Shown here: positions 17,533 through 29,493 of the stretch, piece by piece
Layout of the letters: every line of letters begins with the position of its first letter
Position numbering within the stretch: position 1 is the stretch's first letter
Source of the DNA: Candidatus Doudnabacteria bacterium
GTDB taxonomy: Bacteria > Patescibacteriota > Doudnabacteria > UBA920
Reading direction: 5' to 3'
Length of the DNA: 29,923 nt
Assembly (NCBI GenBank): GCA_023245915.1
Contig: JAHFJK010000002.1
Span: 1-29,923, forward strand
The notes under the pieces: model-generated
What the model was told of the DNA's origin: nothing
The model's database searches: none
The model's input: only the letters and a program-made list of their open reading frames with translations
Translations under genes and position numbers: made by a program

Positions 17533-17560
17533 AAAACTGTCACAGTAAAGACAGTTTTTT
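17531..17560. terminator. Bidirectional terminator between toxin and ligase genes
   Basis: AAAAAACTGTC-8nt-GACAGTTTTTT, 11-bp perfect stem. Confidence 0.7.
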
Positions 17561-18833
17561 ATATTGATAACGACAAAACCATCCAAAACACCATTGCCAA
17601 ATCGTTTTTAAAATAGGGGTTGTCAATAAGGCCTTGGAAGAGGAGGCAGATGAGGAAGAGGGCGACAGCCAACTTTATGTCATTCCCGCGAAAGCCTGCC
17701 TTGCCGGCAGGCAGGCGGGAATCTAGATTGTGGATTCCGGCTAGCCCTTCGCCGCTTCGCGGCTCCGTGGCTGCCGGAATGACACTGGGGCGGAGGCCGC
17801 GATAAATATAAATTGATATTAATCCCAAGAAACTAATTAGACCTAACAAGCCCGTTTCTACCCAAAAATTTAAAAATACGTTATGCGGAAAGTTGTGAGT
17901 ATCTAAATTGGGGTCAGTGTTTAGCTTTTGCCAGTTATTACCAAAGCCTGTTAAGCCTAATCCAAAAATTGGCGACTCTTTTATAGCTTTAACGCCTGTG
18001 TGCCAAAGCGAAAGGCGAGAGATGGCAGATTTTTCCCCATAAAAGGGAAGGACAAAGCGCCAGCGAAGATTGGGGACGGAAATTATAACAATAACCATAA
18101 CAATAACGGCGGCGAAGATCAGTTTGCGGATTTTGGCTTCAGCAGCCACAATCAAATAAATTCCAATAGCTGCGGCCAGCCCTAAGAAACCGGCGCGGGA
18201 AAAGGAAAGGAGCAGGCCGAGCGCGCCTAAGGCCCAGGCGAGGGATTTTAGATTTAAGATTTTAGATTTAAGATTTTCAAAAACGTCGGGAATCAATAAT
18301 GCCAAAAGCGGGGCTGACCAAAGGGCGTAAAAATTCGGATGTGCAAAAAAACTCAACGCGCGTTTTGGCTCGTTGGCATTGCCCCAATAAATTTGCGGAA
18401 GGCCGAGTAAAGTGAAATATTGCAGTATTGCGTAAAGACCAGCTAAAGCTAGTAAGTAGTAAGTAGTAAGTAGTAAGTAACTTTTGCTTTGCGGATGTTG
18501 CTCAAAGAAAAATTTGCCAATGAAAAAAATCGAAATCGGTTGAAGAAACAAAACAATAAATTGTCCCAACTTTGCCTGGTCGAAGCCTTTGATGAATAAA
18601 CTGATTATTCCAGAGATGAAGAAAAAGCCGACTGTTAGTAAAATCTCTTTGCGAATATTTTTGACGGCCGTCAAAAATATTCGCGCCCGTTTTTTTGCGA
18701 TGACATTAACCACAAATGCTATCCAAACCAAAAATACCCACATCATCAGAATATTTCTGGGAAGAAAACCCAAGTTAAACCGAATGGCATAAGCCGGAGC
18801 CAGAATAAAAGTTATAATAAGCAGGTAAAGCAT
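17559..18833 (-). CDS. O-antigen ligase-like (WaaL/Wzy_C) membrane protein with in-frame repeat insertions
   Basis: ~12 TM segments, RA--FF-HPN, LSFSRAG, R--LW--G, P-FG-G, PHN-FL-FW-E-GL-G, F------ND motifs. Confidence 0.88.
   Translation of the reverse strand: MLYLLIITFILAPAYAIRFNLGFLPRNILMMWVFLVWIAFVVNVIAKKRARIFLTAVKNIRKEILLTVGFFFISGIISLFIKGFDQAKLGQFIVLFLQPISIFFIGKFFFEQHPQSKSYLLLTTYYLLALAGLYAILQYFTLLGLPQIYWGNANEPKRALSFFAHPNFYALWSAPLLALLIPDVFENLKSKILNLKSLAWALGALGLLLSFSRAGFLGLAAAIGIYLIVAAEAKIRKLIFAAVIVMVIVIISVPNLRWRFVLPFYGEKSAISRLSLWHTGVKAIKESPIFGLGLTGFGNNWQKLNTDPNLDTHNFPHNVFLNFWVETGLLGLISFLGLISIYIYRGLRPSVIPAATEPRSGEGLAGIHNLDSRLPAGKAGFRGNDIKLAVALFLICLLFQGLIDNPYFKNDLAMVFWMVLSLSI
17678..17784. 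repeat. CGTC-type REP/RPE-like palindromic element inserted in frame in the ligase gene
   Basis: Terminal IR TGTCATTCC/GGAATGACA; translates as VIPAATEPRSGEGLAGIHNLDSRLPAGKAGFRGND. Confidence 0.85.
18245..18279. repeat. Heptamer-periodic tract inside the ligase CDS
   Basis: ATTTTAG ATTTAAG ATTTTAG ATTTAAG ATTTTCA; encodes ENLKSKILNLKS. Confidence 0.8.
18450..18479. repeat. (TAGTAAG)4 simple sequence repeat inside the ligase CDS
   Basis: Four perfect heptamers at 18450-18477; encodes YLLLTTYYL. Confidence 0.9.
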
Positions 18834-18838
18834 ATTTT

Positions 18839-18880
18839 GAGATCCCTCGCTCCGCCAGCTGGCGGAGCTAAGGATGACGG
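18839..18880. repeat. Half of a GTCATCC-type REP with a nested perfect 20-bp palindrome
   Basis: GAGATCC...AGGATGACG frame; GCTCCGCCAGCTGGCGGAGC at 18849-18868; 5 bp from the ligase start codon. Confidence 0.7.
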
Positions 18881-18888
18881 CGTGGACC

Positions 18889-21492
18889 TCAGTTGCCTGG
18901 GAATTTTAACCCGCCGACGTCAAAAATAATGTTGGTGCTGGTGTCTGCGGAATTGCCGCCAATGTCAGTGGCTTTGGCAGCCAAAACGTGGGTACCGGCT
19001 CCGTAATCTTTATTTAAAGAAAAAATAAATGGCGCTAGAGTTTTGCTTTGTAGTAGTTCACCGTCCACCGACACTTGCACCCGCGCAATTGGTTTAGACC
19101 CGGCCGCAGTAACCTGGATATTAAACGGTAAGGAGGTAATTACCGCACCCTCGGACGGAGCGTCAATGCTCACCGCGGGTTTTTGTCCTGTTGAGTTGTC
19201 TGGATTGTTGGCAGGAGGGTTAATAAGGTCGCCTGGAGGATAAGTATAGCCGTGAGCCAGTGCCCATTCCACTACCGGGTTTTCCCAGTCAGGGTTGTCT
19301 TTTTTTTCGCTGTGCAAAACTGTGTAAATTTTGTCAATAATATTTTCGGGCAAAGTTAAATTAGTCGCCGGCAAGCCAGTGGCGGAATCGGCAGAGACTT
19401 TTATGTGCACATCGTCATAAGTTGTGGGTACCGCGTAGTCAGCAAAGACTTCGGTTTTGGTGACTGGTGTGGCGTCAGTAGGCAGTTTGCCGGAAAGTTC
19501 GTCCACAGCAACCTGCTGGATGCCGCTGGGCACAGGGAAAGCCTCCAGGGGCTGGCCGGCTAATGCGTTTTGCATGAATTCGTGCCAGATTGGCGCGGCT
19601 ACCACAACTCCATCCGCGCCTTTTTTCATGGGACACTTGGTACCGCCGCAATTATTTCCGGCCCAGACACCAGCTGCCAGGGAAGGGGTAAAGCCCATGG
19701 TCCAGCCATCCCCCCAGTCGTTGGTAGTGCCGGTTTTGGCCGCTACCGGCCGGTCAGGCAAAGTCAGCGGCGAGTTGGCGCCGAAAATAAAACTTCGGGC
19801 GTTATTGTCAGTCATAATGCTGATAAGCTCATATGCGGCCTGGGGGTCTAAAACACTTTGGGGATTGCTTTTGTATTCTTCCAAAATCTGGCCATCTTTG
19901 TTTTCAATTTTTAAGATGGGGGTCTTTTCATTTTTTACGCCTTCGTTAGCGATTACCGAATAAGCGGCAACATGGTCAACAAGTTTTACCGTACATCCCC
20001 CTAAAACCAAAGACAGCCCGCAGTCGGCCATGGGGCTGGTAATACCTAAATCTCGCGCGGTTTGGGTGGCACTATTTACTCCTACCAAAGCTAAAGTTTT
20101 TACCGCAGGAACATTCAAGCTTCCAGCTAAAGCTTTGCGCATAGAAAGCGGCCCATAAGATTGGCCAGAATAGTTGCTCGGAGCGTAGTCTTTTCCGCCA
20201 TATGTACCGAAATCAGTTACAACATCAAATAAGGGGGAGGCCGGTGAATATTTAAAATCTTTTTTGAAAGCCGTTGCGTAAACATAAGGCTTAAAGCTTG
20301 AACCGGGTTGTCTCTTGTCTGAAATAGCGACATTCACGTTCGGCTCAAACATACAGTTTTTTCCGGGCGTACAGCCGGCGGGTTCAGGCTTGCCAAAATA
20401 ATCTTTGCTGCCGACCATAGCCAAAATTTGGCCGGTCCTGGGATCGATAGCCACCAGCGCGGCATTGTCGGCATTGTATTTTTTGGATGAGTTTTCTACC
20501 CCGTTTTTTACCGCGGCCTCGGCAATTGCCTGTAGACGCAAATCTAAAGTAGTATAAACCTTTAGGCCGCCTTCCTGCAAAGTTTTTTCCCCGTATTTAT
20601 TGGCCAGATAATCTTGCACCCATAAAACAAAGTGCGGCGCTTTTATGCCGTTAGTCAGTTCGGAAAACTGGACTTTTTCTTCCTGTGCCTGCTTTTTTTG
20701 TTCTTCAGTAATATAGCCCTGTTGCTGCATGTAAGATAAAATTGTATTTTTGCGGTTGTCCAAAGCCTGACGGTTTGGACCCAGTGGATTGTAGTAGGTA
20801 GGGGCTTGCGGTAAAGTGGCCAAATAAGCGCTTTCTGCTAAAGATAAATCTTTTGCCGATTTGTTAAAGTAGCTGTTGGCCGCCGCTTCAATGCCATATG
20901 AATTCCTGCCGTAAGGGATTTCGTTTAAATATAATTTTAAAACTTCGTCCTTGGAAAAACGTGAATCTATAGTGACGGCTAAAATCATTTCACGGATTTT
21001 TCTGTCCCAGGATTTGTCGTCGGTCAATATGGCTTTTTTGACAAATTGTTGGGTAATCGTGCTGCCACCCTGGCTTTTGCTGGCAGTCAAAACGTCGACT
21101 ATGACAGCTCGGGCAATGCCAGTTAGAGAAATACCGCCGTGTTTATAAAAATCTTTATCTTCTATTGCAATAGTCGCGTTTTTTAAAAAGGGAGAAATAT
21201 CATTTAAGTTTTTTTGTGTGCGTTTGTAGCCACCGTGAATTTCGTAAAGCAAACTGCCGTCACGCGCAAAAATTTTGGAAGATTCCGGGACATTTCTGTC
21301 TAAAAGTTTGTTTGGATCGGGCAAATCTTTGGCATAGTACAAAAACATGACAGCAATAAATAAAACGCCCAAGGCAAATAGGCGGAAAGCCCAGGTAAAG
21401 AGTTTTCTGGCATTAAATCTGCCCCACTTAAAACGCAAGCGTTTCCTGGAATTTTTACTGTAAGGCGAGTTTTTGTAACTGTAAACACGCAT
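18889..21492 (-). CDS. Class A penicillin-binding protein with C-terminal Ig-like domain
   Basis: EDKDFYKHGG and GGSTITQQ (transglycosylase); SSFK, SLN, KTGT (transpeptidase); C-terminal G-H---A-ATD--GN Ig-like domain. Confidence 0.95.
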   Translation of the reverse strand: MRVYSYKNSPYSKNSRKRLRFKWGRFNARKLFTWAFRLFALGVLFIAVMFLYYAKDLPDPNKLLDRNVPESSKIFARDGSLLYEIHGGYKRTQKNLNDISPFLKNATIAIEDKDFYKHGGISLTGIARAVIVDVLTASKSQGGSTITQQFVKKAILTDDKSWDRKIREMILAVTIDSRFSKDEVLKLYLNEIPYGRNSYGIEAAANSYFNKSAKDLSLAESAYLATLPQAPTYYNPLGPNRQALDNRKNTILSYMQQQGYITEEQKKQAQEEKVQFSELTNGIKAPHFVLWVQDYLANKYGEKTLQEGGLKVYTTLDLRLQAIAEAAVKNGVENSSKKYNADNAALVAIDPRTGQILAMVGSKDYFGKPEPAGCTPGKNCMFEPNVNVAISDKRQPGSSFKPYVYATAFKKDFKYSPASPLFDVVTDFGTYGGKDYAPSNYSGQSYGPLSMRKALAGSLNVPAVKTLALVGVNSATQTARDLGITSPMADCGLSLVLGGCTVKLVDHVAAYSVIANEGVKNEKTPILKIENKDGQILEEYKSNPQSVLDPQAAYELISIMTDNNARSFIFGANSPLTLPDRPVAAKTGTTNDWGDGWTMGFTPSLAAGVWAGNNCGGTKCPMKKGADGVVVAAPIWHEFMQNALAGQPLEAFPVPSGIQQVAVDELSGKLPTDATPVTKTEVFADYAVPTTYDDVHIKVSADSATGLPATNLTLPENIIDKIYTVLHSEKKDNPDWENPVVEWALAHGYTYPPGDLINPPANNPDNSTGQKPAVSIDAPSEGAVITSLPFNIQVTAAGSKPIARVQVSVDGELLQSKTLAPFIFSLNKDYGAGTHVLAAKATDIGGNSADTSTNIIFDVGGLKFPGN

Positions 21493-21604
21493 GCCCAGTA
21501 AGACTTCTTTGTAATTTTATTAATAATTAGTCCAGTTCACTTTTGTTATTTACCCAGTATCTTTTGAACAAGCAGCCGGATTGCAAAGAAGTTCTACTGG
21601 GCAT
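21491..21604 (-). promoter_or_regulatory. PBP 5' leader with a 25-bp inverted repeat covering the start codon
   Basis: 21491-21515 versus 21580-21604: 22 of 25 positions complementary. Confidence 0.6.
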
Positions 21605-21610
21605 GGACAA

Positions 21611-21648
21611 ATTATAGCCTTTTTTAAGGTTTTGGAAAATGGTATAAT
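21611..21648. promoter_or_regulatory. Divergent -10 elements for PBP (minus) and tyrS (plus)
   Basis: TATAAT on minus 21616-21611; extended TGgTATAAT on plus 21640-21648. Confidence 0.55.
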
Positions 21649-21668
21649 GGTTGAGAATTAAGATATAA

Positions 21669-21688
21669 CCTGCCTGCCGGCAGGCAGG
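21669..21688. repeat. Perfect 20-bp micro-palindrome in the tyrS leader
   Basis: CCTGCCTGCCGGCAGGCAGG; variants at 17695-17715 and 23898-23913. Confidence 0.85.
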
Positions 21689-21700
21689 GATTTAAGATCT

Positions 21701-22891
21701 ATGAATGATCCAATTCAAGAGCTTTTAAGCAGGGGCGTGGCTGAAATTTTTGTTAAAAGCGAGTTAGAGCAAGCTTTGCAATCGAAAAAAAGTCTTAGTG
21801 TTTATTATGGGGTCGATCCATCGGGACCCGCAATCCATTTGGGTCATGCCGTGCTTTTGAGGAAGCTTCAAATTCTTCAAGAATTAGGTCATAAAATAAT
21901 TTTTTTGATTGGCGATTTTACCGGAATGATTGGCGATCCTACCGATAAAAATTCTATAAGACAGCCGCTTAAGAGAAAAGAAGTTTTAGCAAATGCTAAA
22001 ACTTATAAAAAACAGGTTTCAAAATTTTTAAATTTTACGGGGAAAAATCCTGCCAAGATTGTTTTTAACAGCAAGTGGAATGATAATTTGAAATTTAAAG
22101 ATGTTATTGAGCTTTCGGGTAAGTTTACTGTTCAGCAGCTTTTAGAAAGAGATATGTTTCAAAAAAGAATGGAAGAAAACAAGCCGATTGGCCTGCACGA
22201 GTTTTTATATCCACTTATACAAGGCTACGATGCCGCTGTTTTAGAGGCGGATATGCAGATTGGGGGGACGGATCAAACTTTTAATATGCTGCAAGGCCGT
22301 TATTTGACCAAAGCTTTAAAGAATAAAACTCAAATGGTTTTAACTTGCGAGCTGTTAGTAGGCACAGACGGCAGGAAAATGTCAAAAAGTTTTAATAATG
22401 TGATTGATATTGAAGATGAGCCCAGTGAAATGTTCGGCAAGGTCATGTCAATAAACGACGATTTAATAAAAAAATATTTTGTTTTGGCTACCCGTGTGCC
22501 TTTGGAAGAAATTGACCTGATAATAAACTCAAATGCAAATCCACGAGATCAAAAATTAATTTTAGCTGAAAAAATTACAGCTTTATATCATGGTGAGAAA
22601 AAAGCCGTTGCCGCTAAAGCAAATTTTGGTAAAAAGTTCAGACAATCGTCAGGAGAAATTAAAGCTGATTTTGAGCTGGCGTTAGATAAAGGGAGTCGGA
22701 CATTTAGCGGACTACTTGGAATATTAGTTAGTGGAGGCTTGGCGACTTCAAAATCTGAGGCTAGGAGAAAAGTGGAAGAAGGTGCGGTAGAAATCAACAA
22801 TGAACGAGTTAGTGTCAATGAAAATCGGTTACTTGAAATAAATAAGGGAGATCTGATTCGTTTAGGAAAAAGATTTTTAAAAATTGTCTAA
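21701..22891 (+). CDS. tyrS: Tyrosine--tRNA ligase
   Basis: GVDP...HLGH, IGDPT, YPLIQGYD, GGTDQ, KMSKS, C-terminal S4-like domain. Confidence 0.97.
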   Translation: MNDPIQELLSRGVAEIFVKSELEQALQSKKSLSVYYGVDPSGPAIHLGHAVLLRKLQILQELGHKIIFLIGDFTGMIGDPTDKNSIRQPLKRKEVLANAKTYKKQVSKFLNFTGKNPAKIVFNSKWNDNLKFKDVIELSGKFTVQQLLERDMFQKRMEENKPIGLHEFLYPLIQGYDAAVLEADMQIGGTDQTFNMLQGRYLTKALKNKTQMVLTCELLVGTDGRKMSKSFNNVIDIEDEPSEMFGKVMSINDDLIKKYFVLATRVPLEEIDLIINSNANPRDQKLILAEKITALYHGEKKAVAAKANFGKKFRQSSGEIKADFELALDKGSRTFSGLLGILVSGGLATSKSEARRKVEEGAVEINNERVSVNENRLLEINKGDLIRLGKRFLKIV

Positions 22892-22895
22892 ATTA

Positions 22896-22920
22896 AAACC
22901 CCCTCTTTGCGAGGGGGTTT
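22896..22920. terminator. Bidirectional terminator after tyrS
   Basis: AAACCCCCTC-TTTGC-GAGGGGGTTT. Confidence 0.75.
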
Positions 22921-22966
22921 CTCTTTTAGCCTGAGTTGAGCGTTTATCCGCGACAAATCGGCGGAT

Positions 22967-23092
22967 TTACATAGCGCCGCCACTCATACCTTCACCACTT
23001 TTATCCTCATCTTCGTCAGAAGCAGGCGTAGAGGGCTCTGCCGCGGTTCCGCCGCCCATGCTGCCGTCGGCAGGCATATCGTCAAAAAACAT
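22967..23092 (-). CDS. 41-aa acidic Gly/Ser-rich small protein (below the ORF-track size cutoff)
   Basis: MFFDDMPADGSMGGGTAAEPSTPASDEDEDKSGEGMSGGAM; SD-like AGAAAGGA upstream, promoter TTGCGT-17-TATAAT (23322-23294) and downstream hairpins. Confidence 0.55.
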   Translation of the reverse strand: MFFDDMPADGSMGGGTAAEPSTPASDEDEDKSGEGMSGGAM

Positions 23093-23307
23093 TTTTGTTA
23101 TCCTTTCTCGGGTCAATCGCTCTCTCTTCGTTCGTCTAGATTATCATCTAGACTCACTTTGTTTCGAGCATTGCCCCTCTCCCCAAATTTTCCTTGTATA
23201 AACCCCAACTGAAAATTTGGGATCCCCTGAAAATTTATGTTGAGGAGTTAGTGTTAAATTTACAGAATTTACCTATATAAATTCTATTTTCAGATTATAG
23301 CAAGTCC

Positions 23308-23802
23308 TTATTGTATACGCAAGCTTGTATGAAAGTGGTGCATGGTACATACGGCAATAGCTAAAGCGTCGGCGGCATCGTCGGGCTGGGGCGCAGATTT
23401 TAGTTTGAAAGTTTTTTTAATAATGTATTGGACTTGTTCCTTGGTTGCTTTGCCATAACCGCAAATGAAATTTTTGACTTGCAAGGGTGTGAATTCAAAA
23501 ATCGGCAGTTTGTTGGTTTGGCAAACCAAAAGCGCCACTCCCCTGGCCTGCGAGACCGTCATGACGGTTTTTTGGTTGGTAGTTAGAAAAAGTTTTTCCA
23601 CTCCTACAGCGTCCGGCCTAAACTTTTTTATTATTTGATTTAAATCCTCTGCCAAAATTTCCAGCCGTTGGGCATGGGATAAAACTTTTTTGGTCGCGAT
23701 AATTCCAAAGTCTTCGAGCAGGTACTCGTCTGCCCGTTTTGTGGATTTAATAATTCCGTATCCGGTTGTCGCGGTTCCGGGATCAATTCCCAATATAACC
23801 AT
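23308..23802 (-). CDS. ruvC: Holliday junction resolvase
   Basis: LGIDPG, VEKLF, QARGV, FTPLQVK, GYG-ATKEQV, PDDAADALAIA. Confidence 0.96.
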   Translation of the reverse strand: MVILGIDPGTATTGYGIIKSTKRADEYLLEDFGIIATKKVLSHAQRLEILAEDLNQIIKKFRPDAVGVEKLFLTTNQKTVMTVSQARGVALLVCQTNKLPIFEFTPLQVKNFICGYGKATKEQVQYIIKKTFKLKSAPQPDDAADALAIAVCTMHHFHTSLRIQ

Positions 23803-23807
23803 AAAAG

Positions 23808-23931
23808 AAATCCTAAATCCTAGAACCTAAAAACTAAACAAAGTTGAAATTCTAAAGGTTTAAATTTTTAAACTTTAATTTTATAGAGTTTGTTTAGCCT
23901 GCCTGCCGGCAGGGCTTTAGTCTTTAGATTT
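23808..23931. repeat. Heptamer-periodic palindrome (CTAA/TTAG core) with a nested CCTGCC micro-palindrome
   Basis: ATCCTAA ATCCTAG AACCTAA AAACTAA left arm; TTTGTTTAG-[23898-23913]-GCTTTAG TCTTTAG right arm. Confidence 0.7.
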
Positions 23932-24647
23932 TATAAATTAGCTGATGTATGTACCGCAATCACGTCTTCGTCATTTTCCAGTGCAGCAAACAGCTCATCC
24001 ACTTTAGGTTTTTGTTCTTCTGTTAAGTCAGTGCCTTGCGATGATTCTTGAATAATATCAGCCTGTGCCACTTTAGCGCCGGCTTTTATAAGCACGTTTT
24101 TGATTTTAGTAAGATCGTTAGCATATGTGTAGACTTCTAAACCTTCCACAGATTCCCGGACATCTTGCGCTCCCGCATCTATCGCCGCTAATTCGATCTT
24201 AGGCAAATTATCATCGCGTTCCACCAAAATTTGTCCTTTTGTAGCAAACTGCCAGACAACACTGCCCTGCGCGCCCATGTTGCCGCCGTGGTCTTCAAAA
24301 ATTTTACGGATATTATTGGAAGTGCGGTTGGTGTTGTCAGTCGCACACTCAACCAAGAAGGCTGTGCCAAAAGGGCCGTAGCCTTCGTAAGCCACTTCTT
24401 TAATATTGCCTCCGCCTGCGCCTGTGGCTGCCTTTATGGCGCGATCAATGTTGTCATTCGGCATGCCCTGGGCCTTGGCATATTCAATCGCGCTTTTTAA
24501 TTTAAAGTTGGAGTTAGGGTCTCCGCTTCCGCCTTCTTTGACCGCAATGGAGATTTTTTTTGAAAGTTTGGAAAAGAGCAGTCCCCGTTTTTGGTCGAGA
24601 ACCCCTTTGGTGCGTTTAATTTGCGACCATTTGCTGTGTCCGGACAT
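23931..24647 (-). CDS. yebC: YebC/PmpR family protein
   Basis: MSGHSKWSQIK, YEGYGP, TDNTNRT, LE--EDV--V-TSA. Confidence 0.96.
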   Translation of the reverse strand: MSGHSKWSQIKRTKGVLDQKRGLLFSKLSKKISIAVKEGGSGDPNSNFKLKSAIEYAKAQGMPNDNIDRAIKAATGAGGGNIKEVAYEGYGPFGTAFLVECATDNTNRTSNNIRKIFEDHGGNMGAQGSVVWQFATKGQILVERDDNLPKIELAAIDAGAQDVRESVEGLEVYTYANDLTKIKNVLIKAGAKVAQADIIQESSQGTDLTEEQKPKVDELFAALENDEDVIAVHTSANL

Positions 24648-24671
24648 AGAATAGGAATTAGCAGTTAGGAA

Positions 24672-25454
24672 TTAGGATTTAAAACTAATCAAGACTGTTA
24701 ATTCTCCCTTTATCGACTGTCTTTTTTTTAATTCATCTGACACTTGCATTGGCGTGCCGCGGATGAATTCTTCATGCATTTTTGTCAGTTCTCGGGCAAC
24801 CACAACCTGCGATGTTGGAAAGGCGTTGGCAATGTAATTTAAAGTTTTTAAAATTCTTTCCGCTGATTCATAAAATATGGCCGTGGCCCCTGCTTGCTGC
24901 GCGGCTTCCAAGGCTTCGACAGATTTAATCGCGGTTTTTTGCAAGAAGCCTAAAAATAAAAATCTGTCAGTTGGCAGGCCAGAGGCGGAAAGCGCAGCAA
25001 TCGATGCGCTCGCGCCAGGGATTGGAACCACTTGGACTTTTTCTTTTACACATTCTCTCACTAACCTAAATCCCGGATCAGAAATTCCCGGCGTGCCCGC
25101 ATCTGTAATTAGGCAACCGTCAGATTTTTGCAATCGTCTAGTTAAATCTTTTACCACCTGCTGTTCGTTGTGCTCTGCGAATTGGACAATCTCTTTTTTT
25201 GCGAGCGCAGCCGACCTGTCCGCCGAAGCTTCAGCGTAGGTGGAAGCAATCTTACCTTGGATGGAGATTGCTTCGTCCCCCTCGACTGCGCTCGGGATCC
25301 TCGCAATGACAGGGAGAGAGTCGATGTATTGCAGCAACCTTTTGGAATAATTCGGATTCTCCGCAATCACAAAATCGCAGGCTGTTAAAGTTTCAATTGC
25401 CCGCAAAGTTATGTCCCCCAAATTGCCTATAGGAGTAGCAACAACGTAGAGCAT
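24672..25454 (-). CDS. rsmI: 16S rRNA C1402 2'-O-methyltransferase with ~37-aa repeat-derived insertion
   Basis: LYVVATPIGNL-DIT-RA, TDAGTPGISDPG, PIPGAS, YES--R, RELTKMHEE, KGE. Confidence 0.93.
   Translation of the reverse strand: MLYVVATPIGNLGDITLRAIETLTACDFVIAENPNYSKRLLQYIDSLPVIARIPSAVEGDEAISIQGKIASTYAEASADRSAALAKKEIVQFAEHNEQQVVKDLTRRLQKSDGCLITDAGTPGISDPGFRLVRECVKEKVQVVPIPGASASIAALSASGLPTDRFLFLGFLQKTAIKSVEALEAAQQAGATAIFYESAERILKTLNYIANAFPTSQVVVARELTKMHEEFIRGTPMQVSDELKKRQSIKGELTVLISFKS
25199..25310. repeat. CGTC-type REP/RPE-like element inserted in frame in rsmI
   Basis: TTGCGAG...CTCGCAATGAC ends; GAAGCAATCT/AGATTGCTTC stem (25243-25252, 25265-25274); encodes VIARIPSAVEGDEAISIQGKIASTYAEASADRSAALA. 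Confidence 0.85.
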
Positions 25455-28275: not shown

Positions 28276-28304
28276 ATTATAGCACATCTAACTTTTTTTG
28301 TCCA
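28276..28304 (-). promoter_or_regulatory. Sigma70-type promoter with extended -10
   Basis: TGGACA (28304-28299), 17 bp, TGc-TATAAT (28281-28276). Confidence 0.65.
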
Positions 28305-28609
28305 TGCTTAGACTTATCCTGTTATTTAAAATCCAAAAGTAGACTTATCCAATGCAGATGATACACCCTATGCCACCCGTGCCTTACGCCAAATAATACC
28401 TCTGCTGAAGGTTTTAAGCCAAAAAAGAATAGCTTGGGGATTAGTTCCTGTAAACGGATTATACAGCAAATATTAAGGTTTGGGATAAAGCAATGCCGGG
28501 ACTTACCAAGAAACCAAGCCAATAAGCATTTAAGCTAAAACCGTTCAAAATTTAAAAATCGCCGCTTAAGGTGTATCATTGTTGGATTGGAAAATACTTG
28601 CTTGGTAAG

Positions 28610-28629
28610 GTAACTGCCCACTGGGCATA
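28610..28629. repeat. 20-bp dispersed repeat (copy 2, inverted relative to 83-102)
   Basis: GTAACTGCCCACTGGGCATA. Confidence 0.8.
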
Positions 28630-28639
28630 CAAAACATCG

Positions 28640-28736
28640 GTATTGCTGCGAGCGAGTGCATCCGAGCGAAGCAATCTTTCTCAAGATATGATTGCCACGC
28701 AATTTAAGCCAAAGCCCTTAAATCGCTCGCAATGCC
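28640..28736. repeat. Degenerate intergenic relative of the REP-like element in rsmI
   Basis: TGCGAGCG...GAAGCAATCT...GATTGC...CTCGCAATG with a nested ATTTAAG/CTTAAAT stem. Confidence 0.65.
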
Positions 28737-29493
28737 AAGAGTGCGGTAAAAATTTTCAAAACAGCAGGAACAAAAGCAAGTCACGGAATGAACCTCCTCG
28801 CAGCAAGCTGCGAGGTATCAACTGCAGACTGCAGAGTGATTCCGCAGCAGAGCTGCGGGGTATTAAACCCTAAGAGGGAATAAATTATGGCGTCAATACA
28901 TCTGGTGCAGGCAAACAATTAAGCAACTGGCTGGACAATATCGTAAGAGCGAAAAATGGATCAGGCTGCAACTGGACAAAGCCAGGCTGACAAACTTTCA
29001 TCTTTACCCGCAGCCAGTAGTCGCCATCGCTGATGTGACTTTCTGGGGCAGAAAGTATGGTGTGCTGGTATTTCGTTCCTACGATTTAAAACAGAACCTG
29101 ATCTGGCTGGAAGTAAAGACCGAAACAGCCGAAGTCTACCAAGAGGCTAAACAGATTTTAGAGAGCTTGGGTTTTACCTTTGACGCCGTCGTAATTGACG
29201 GGAAACTAGGCATTAAAGGGGTTTTTGACGGCATACTCATCCAAATCTGCCAGTTCCACCAGATTAAGACCGTTAACAAATATTTGACCCGAAGGCCAAA
29301 ACTACAGGCCGCGATAGAATTACGAACCATAGCCTTAGCCTTAACCGAAGTTAAAGAAGAATATTTTACCACCTTACTTAATCAGTGGCACGAGAAATGG
29401 AAAGACTTTTTAAAAGGACGAACAACTAATCCGGAAACCGGCAAATGGTTTTACACCCATAAAAGAATTCGGTCAGCCCACAGAAGTTTAATC
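28735..29493 (+). mobile_element. IS256/Mutator-like transposase remnant, interrupted and 3'-truncated
   Basis: CQECGKNF Zn-ribbon fragment; open frame from 28867 with LW--Y...D-TFWGR, IDG--G, Q-CQFHQ, YTHKRIRSA-RSL; stops abruptly at the IS66 junction. Confidence 0.75.
28783..28872. repeat. Twin-hairpin REP-like element interrupting the transposase 5' end
   Basis: CCTCGCAGC-AA-GCTGCGAGG (28796-28815) and CCGCAGC-AGA-GCTGCGG (28842-28858). Confidence 0.65.

Follow-up and report, generated by a model that had tools for sequence, protein, structure and literature searches.

The DNA considered here is a 29,923-nt window, contig C5 of a groundwater Candidatus Doudnabacteria genome, in which two unrelated genes each contain a palindromic DNA element lying in frame within the coding sequence. 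The organism belongs to the Patescibacteria, or Candidate Phyla Radiation (CPR), bacteria which have tiny genomes and few obvious mobile elements. Its genome (G000) comprises 1.06 Mb in 110 contigs, has a G+C content of 42% and is 93.5% complete; below, other C-numbers denote its other contigs, and L-numbers the genomes or loci of relatives. The first host gene (17559-18833, minus strand) encodes a Wzy_C, or O-antigen-ligase-like, protein of 424 amino acids (aa; Pfam PF04932, E = 6.5e-22), hereafter the ligase, and harbours element A. The second, rsmI (24672-25454, minus strand), encodes a 260-aa member of the 16S rRNA 2'-O-methyltransferase family (TP_methylase; PF00590, E = 3.7e-29, residues 1-234) and harbours element B.

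Two hairpin elements within genes

Element A (17678-17784) is recognised from its inverted termini and its fold as a head-to-head pair of hairpin units, each headed by GTCAT, the whole reading TGTCAT...ATGACA. As DNA it folds with -35.5 kcal/mol (z = -4.8), and none of 200 shuffled sequences proved equally stable. Its stems and fold define two units. A1 (17678-17726, plus strand) resembles the NTS hairpin of Neisseria, to which we return below; it runs TGTCATTCCCGCG...GCGGGAATCTAG, has a CCCGCG stem and holds a nested mini-palindrome in its loop (17694-17716). A2 (17733-17784, minus strand), GTCATTCCGGC...GCCGGAATC, is a variant whose stem is CCGGC and which contains an inner hairpin (17751-17763). 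In the frame of the gene, the element corresponds to ligase residues ~349-383, VIPAATEPRSGEGLAGIHNLDSRLPAGKAGFRGND. Orthologues of the ligase are present in all 31 relatives searched. Element A is missing from 6 of the 15 that were aligned, the empty site taking the form ...GLKNRxN... (for example ...GLKNRGN...), and in the nine filled alleles the insert is without exception in frame and free of stops. Among 18 congeners, eight give a ligase match that is split in two and skips residues 349-381. The 35-aa ligase insert proposed in a preliminary description of this DNA is thereby borne out: 35 element codons stand in place of ~3, a net gain of 32 aa over the empty orthologues.

Element B (~25196-25311), identified by its fold and by comparison with the repeat family described below, is a head-to-head pair with the same layout, built from units with GCAAT stems (ATTGCGAG/GCAATC); its minus strand folds with z = -3.0. 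Unit B1 (25263-25311, minus strand; GTCATTGCGAGG...CGAAGCAATC) contains a nested hairpin and retains an intact head, GTCATTGCGAG, which ends at 25310/25311. Unit B2 (25196-25254, plus strand; GCGAGCG...GGAAGCAATC), likewise delimited by stems and fold and with a nested hairpin at 25221-25236, has lost its head. This has decayed to a run of T (25196-25200), which accounts for lysines in the RsmI reading, and its lost form can be seen in a further copy of the element at C82:4643-4752, 87% identical over 111 nt, where both heads are intact. Both elements had initially been regarded as GTCATT-ended hairpins; hairpin units are indeed found in each, but element B is so ended on one side only. A ~37-aa insert had also been placed in RsmI at 25199-25310; residues 49-86, VIARIPSAVEGDEAISIQGKIASTYAEASADRSAALA, are now assigned to the element, with a net change of +38/39 aa relative to empty orthologues.

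The RsmI orthologues, 41 in number, fall into two classes. Twenty-four lack the insert, including all of the more distant relatives, and read ...HVGAWPKE... at the site. All 24 are 220-223 aa long, so that equally long loops are not a feature of palindrome-free proteins. The other 17 are filled and measure 239-272 aa; every one of these alleles is in frame and stop-free, even as the lengths and sequences of their inserts are unrelated. In about half of the 18 congeners the match to RsmI is split in two, with residues 49-85 skipped.

When mapped onto AlphaFold models, which are of modest quality, both inserts are predicted as low-confidence loops between secondary-structure elements. Ligase residues 348-382 are modelled as coil with a predicted local distance difference test score (pLDDT) of ~34, flanked by helices 317-347 and 383-402. 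In the RsmI model (mean pLDDT 70.7), residues 50-81 score below 50 and are placed between helix 34-46 and strand 88-91.

A genome-wide repeat family

Elements A and B are not chance palindromes, since the 10-mers at their termini are found 14-42 times genome-wide, where ~1-2 would be expected, and since both have further copies, that of element A lying at C86:3945-4055 (85% identity over 116 nt). A strict scan for units with G+C stems, defined as GTCAT plus a perfect 6-nt stem, returned 103 units in 72 clusters. Of these clusters, 31 are head-to-head dimers with both heads intact, and many of the single units are decayed pairs. The base preceding GTCAT is T in 96/103 units and C in 5/103, whilst the base following the stem is C in 77/103; both units of A and both of B end ...AATC. 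Unit sizes peak at about 24 and about 43 nt, and the larger units have a nested hairpin. At the dimer ends T...A and a pyrimidine-rich left flank are seen, and no stronger target motif.

A scan of long open reading frames (ORFs), followed by Pfam searches, showed that at least 19 genes contain an element in frame, with Pfam domains flanking or spanning the insert in 19. Alongside the ligase and RsmI, the hosts encode a second Wzy_C protein, a GT4 glycosyltransferase, GlmS, CarA, an M24 peptidase, tRNA-guanine transglycosylase (TGT), ATP synthase gamma, PrmC, a zinc alcohol dehydrogenase, a DUF6580 protein, DinB, RecJ, PurL, a YbaK-type editing protein, GatB and HsdS. One further host is uncertain, a class II aminoacyl-tRNA synthetase with an element near its N-terminus. 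Alignment to orthologues, the check originally suggested, confirms clean indels in the ligase, RsmI and ATP synthase gamma, in the last of which residues 60-94 are absent from many congeners and from other genera; in 16 others, Pfam matches lie to either side of the insert and support it. Of the isolated genic 10-mer 'half sites' (VIA.., GND..), about half proved to be chance matches and were discarded.

ORFs of at least 150 aa make up 76% of the genome and hold 25% of the clusters, a shortage which fits selection against genic copies. It might be supposed that the repeats are intrinsically ORF-friendly. This was ruled out, as intergenic dimers average 1.17 open frames out of six, whereas random windows and genic dimers each average 2.0. 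Since intergenic dimers are less open than random DNA, the repeats are not built for reading and the genic copies represent survivors. The scan of coding sequences advocated in the preliminary description thus revealed many more host genes; the frame bias that it was also meant to test for cannot be claimed, GTC being in codon register in 5/8 intact genic dimers, too small a sample for the purpose.

One site, different fillings

The RsmI site is occupied in different congeners by GCAAT-type dimers, CCGG-type dimers, a near-canonical NTS-like dimer, another palindrome of G/C runs, or short remnants, and a similar variety of fillings exists at the ligase site. On the RsmI gene tree the distribution of filled and empty alleles involves ~5 state changes (4-6 in bootstraps), at least two of which are forced by well-supported branches. 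Furthermore, the same genomes disagree as to which of three sites (ligase, RsmI and ATP synthase gamma) are filled. Some filled alleles have common junctions, indicating common descent followed by remodelling.

A pair of GCAAT-type copies, C20:7143-7205 and C93:22459-22524, shows 100% identity over 68 nt between unrelated flanks, which suggests recent activity of the family. With at least 19 host genes and polymorphism at three sites within one genus, this pair speaks for the active source of protein loops that had been postulated for the lineage. A second pair of identical dimers was dropped as evidence of mobility. It lies in a 203-nt inverted repeat (C2:2590-2800 and C86:6140-6345, 99.5% identical) which includes the flanks as well as a complete hairpin dimer, and the dimer may have been carried within this longer repeat unit.

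The palindrome family with G/C runs fills the same two sites in L019, L023 and L025 (ligase) and in L007 (RsmI), where it reads as PLLSKEGLGEV or LPLPLGEGRGEG. Empty ligase alleles (for example L029 and L027) read ...CCGCGGCCTAAAAAACCGCGGCAATC..., the end of which recalls a hairpin unit's 3' half (CGCGGGAATC), a likeness that could reflect a target preference or be coincidental. Other loops of the ligase orthologues in L018, L021, L025 and L029 carry lineage-specific inserts, each in a single congener (SAGGRSASGG, LPVPRSLSEGGEIVRQLADWKF), and several of these look like translated G+C-rich repeats.

An associated nuclease gene

A search for a cognate gene of the RAYT (REP-associated tyrosine transposase) or TnpA (Y1) type had been recommended at the outset. 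A RAYT-like Y1_Tnp gene was found at C75:14150-14701 (L049:1423-1974), scoring 28.7 bits with PF01797, above the cut-off, and 60 bits with NF047646, below its cut-off of 80. It is bracketed by GTAG-headed, G+C-rich palindromes of the type CTGTAGGGGC...GCCCGCCC, a separate repeat family, and was ruled out as the cognate enzyme because its flanking repeats are not GTCAT units. Those units flank instead genes of the Ssn type, which encode small GIY-YIG nucleases.

GIY-YIG matches number 15 in the genome, 13 of them in small ORFs. Four of the genes, all of one subfamily and 96-99 aa in length, are enclosed exactly by a GTCAT hairpin on one side and an ATGAC-ended hairpin on the other, forming units of 400-430 nt. 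Element A has the same two ends as these gene-carrying units, with ~10 nt in place of the gene. The subfamily is present in 58/151 genomes of the phylum, and of 30 loci fetched from them 22 are flanked on both sides by correctly oriented units; among control positions within these loci the figure is 0.6%. In three further CPR genomes (L077, L079, L081), Ssn-like genes have GCAAT-type units at their flanks. The association between GIY-YIG genes and such repeats was initially considered new, a claim that was dropped as it had already been described by Chenal et al. 2025 (PMC11893778).

Two further arrangements of GIY-YIG genes were seen. In other members of the CPR (L061, L063, L079, L080), tandem arrays of 3-6 head half-sites (..GGRATGACAA.., every 15-20 nt) adjoin Ssn-like genes. 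A second subfamily of small GIY-YIG genes occurs beside tRNA genes, at C43:7862-8071 (plus strand), C30:651-863 (minus strand), C11:3306-3488 (minus strand) and C42:4367-4561 (minus strand). At the C43 and C30 loci the nuclease gene has a duplicate of the tRNA's 5' part on each side, as if the gene had landed in or next to a tRNA gene.

Relationship to known systems

The CGTC-tagged superfamily of repetitive extragenic palindromes (REPs) includes dRS3 of Neisseria and RPE-4 and RPE-6 of Rickettsia; its members are mostly head-to-head dimers, are also found within genes and have no dedicated transposase (Di Nocera, De Gregorio & Rocco 2013; PMC3733652). The repeats described here share with it the short hairpin, the unpaired xGTC head, the prevalence of head-to-head dimers, the intragenic copies and the lack of an attached tyrosine transposase. 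They differ in having a TGTC head, in the nested hairpins of many units, with size modes at ~24 and 43 nt, and in a high genic share. Their hosts, the Patescibacteria/CPR, lie outside the five phyla covered by that study (PMC3733652).

In 2025 this class was described anew under the names NTS and SRM. The NTS (CGTCATTCCCGCGMAVGCGGGAATCYRG) and the broader set of SRM motifs lie on either side of ssn genes, whose product, Ssn, is a single-domain GIY-YIG nuclease which cuts single-stranded DNA (ssDNA) just upstream of the motif (PMC11893778). The NTS-ssnA-NTS layout resembles an insertion sequence (IS), the C directly after the palindrome is critical for SsnA binding, and 2% of the NTS of N. meningitidis are intragenic (PMC11893778). 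Both the order hairpin, small GIY-YIG gene, hairpin and the ATTCCC...GGGAAT core followed by C recur in the present genome, which contains two copies of the exact 27-nt Neisseria NTS consensus (on C4 and C86). The differences are that 25% of clusters lie in long ORFs here, compared with 2% of Neisseria NTS in genes; that loops exceed the published pattern and the GCAAT-stem type falls outside it; and that neither in-frame copies nor the CPR appear in the paper.

With the REP/REPIN and RAYT system the repeats have in common their hairpins, the dimer as the form that probably moves, and a small gene for an enzyme lying between copies of its own repeat, although the head tag is TGTC rather than GTAG and the enzyme is of the GIY-YIG rather than the HUH/Y1 type. 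As in a classical MITE (a miniature transposable element with inverted repeats) there are inverted ends, but without the target-site duplication. Finally, the Rickettsia palindromic elements, RPE-1 and others, were reportedly described by Ogata and colleagues in 2000. These are alike in behaviour, being in-frame palindromes in many unrelated housekeeping genes that are tolerated as extra peptide; the presence of an associated nuclease gene in the same genome is a point of difference. The comparison with these elements and with CGTC-tagged REPs drawn in the preliminary description is accurate, and its reading of the inserts as selfish palindromes that lie in frame and add new peptide is supported.

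Origin and fate of the inserts

Taken together, the evidence makes it very probable that the two inserts are in-frame, gene-less, head-to-head dimers of the known CGTC-REP/NTS/SRM hairpin class, kept in loops and translated as disordered peptide. The basic unit would consist of an unpaired TGTC(AT) head and an ATTCC/GGAAT or ATTGC/GCAAT stem, usually followed by C. The full form would be a hairpin, an ssn-like gene of ~96 aa and a second hairpin, 400-430 nt in all, and the dimers of ~100 nt would have the same ends with ~10 nt replacing the gene. Copies would land throughout the genome and most of those landing in genes would be lost. The survivors would be those that keep the frame, contain no stop in that frame and sit in a loop or inter-domain linker, where they would be read as disordered peptide. 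Translation of the inserts appears probable because their frames are open in every filled orthologue. The dimers may be moved by Ssn or another particular enzyme; the published work on Ssn concerns only the cleavage of ssDNA beside the motif (PMC11893778).

Several observations weigh against this interpretation. The published SRM pattern, with a loop of 0-5 nt, has five hits in the genome against 1.6 expected; A1 was the only unit found to fit it, and that solely when the loop is widened from 5 to 60 nt, while element B, with its GCAAT stems, falls outside it, so that the units are to be seen as variants of the class and not as matches to the pattern. The nuclease, a putative member of the family cd10448 of the CDD, has a Pfam GIY-YIG match only, nothing specific in NCBIfam, and as its best match in the PDB the UPF0213 protein 1zg2 (E = 1e-5). 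No ssn-like gene with GCAAT-type flanks was found in the 93.5%-complete assembly, and no direct repeat that would mark a target-site duplication flanks 30 of the 31 dimers. The ligase model is poor, with a mean pLDDT of 55.9, and it and the RsmI model were each built on an alignment of only 15 sequences. Three metatranscriptomes from the same study contain no contig over 17400-25500, and no RNA run is listed as containing either rsmI or the ATP synthase gamma gene. DNA contigs of the groundwater source sample end at the repeats, and thereby neither back nor weaken the assembly.

It is possible, though improbable, that the inserts are old relics, a single ancestral insertion at each site having been remodelled by drift and gene conversion within a family that has ceased to supply loops actively in this genome. 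Identity to the nearest copies of A and B is just 85-88%, one head of element B has decayed, filled RsmI alleles have common flank changes (YIDGL for HVGAWP) and often one right junction (ATGACAGCAAAAAAAGA), and both junctions are common to four ligase alleles, all of which would fit such an age. The number of state changes on the RsmI tree, with at least two of them forced, weighs against one ancestral event, as do the conflicting presence patterns at three sites, and the perfect 68-nt identity of the C20 and C93 copies in unrelated flanks and the four intact ssn-like genes argue for continued activity. A reversal of the relationship between gene and repeat seems rather unlikely. The GIY-YIG gene would then be a free-standing gene of the homing type which lands in the middle of dimers already in place, and the dimers would spread by other means such as recombination or replication slippage. 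The position of the gene is indeed always the dimer centre, GIY-YIG genes of other subfamilies in this genome adjoin tRNA genes and have pieces of tRNA duplicated to either side, in a homing-like manner, and the published work demonstrates cleavage and no transposition (PMC11893778). The flanking units, however, vary from one copy of the gene to another and do so in step with the gene across the phylum, which fits an enzyme and its site travelling together, and gene-less dimers are far more numerous than gene-carrying ones, as is seen in IS/MITE systems.

There is very little likelihood that the dimers are moved, as in the REPIN model, by a RAYT-like Y1 transposase and not by the GIY-YIG nuclease. 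A gene of this kind does exist on C75, but its flanks are GTAG-headed, GTCAT units bracket GIY-YIG genes instead, and Di Nocera et al. found no tyrosine transposase gene flanked by CGTC repeats (PMC3733652). Removal of the inserts before translation, by DNA excision or by RNA processing at the hairpins, would leave the proteins without new peptide. Single strands of both elements fold strongly, which would fit; yet 17 RsmI and nine ligase filled alleles are all in frame and stop-free despite their differing lengths and sequences, a constraint that removal would not impose. Intergenic copies are for the most part closed in most frames, neither gene bears an intron or intein signature, and Ssn is reported not to act on RNA (PMC11893778). 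Removal is therefore extremely improbable. A more ambitious extension of the dimer interpretation holds that the units of hairpin, ssn and hairpin are autonomous transposons mobilised by their GIY-YIG nuclease, and that the gene-less dimers repeatedly hit the same loop-coding sites, constituting a lineage-wide, site-biased generator of loops in the CPR. The empty ligase site carries CCGCGGCAATC, similar to half a unit. The proposal as a whole remains doubtful.

This kind of element is already published. What is added here is a new host lineage, an unusually high load of at least 19 genes in 1 Mb, TGTC in place of CGTC heads, with nested loops, and the repeated filling of the same loop sites by repeats of different types. 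Approximately 2% of the genes in this genome would carry a translated selfish hairpin repeat, among them those for core proteins such as ATP synthase gamma, TGT, GatB and RsmI. The inserts lengthen proteins and disrupt domain matches, and may mislead the annotation and alignment of CPR proteins. Sister species with different repeats in the same loop sites offer a natural series on the tolerance of proteins towards random peptide insertions. Furthermore, as gene-carrying and gene-less copies occur together, these genomes are well suited to testing whether Ssn nucleases move the repeats.

An intergenic relative of element B

The window contains a further member of the family outside genes, at 28640-28737 on the minus strand. 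It has the architecture of element B, with a mutated GGCAT head (GGCATTGCGAG) and a GCAATC inner stem, and corresponds to the degenerate relative of the rsmI element that had been noted at 28640-28736. All six of its frames contain stops. A copy on contig C3 (C3:3243-3376) is 95.5% identical over 134 nt. The surrounding intergenic region (28300-29100) is a mosaic of repeats, with matches to C89 (98% over 190 nt) and to C35 and C83 (99-100% over 100 nt) in addition to that on C3.

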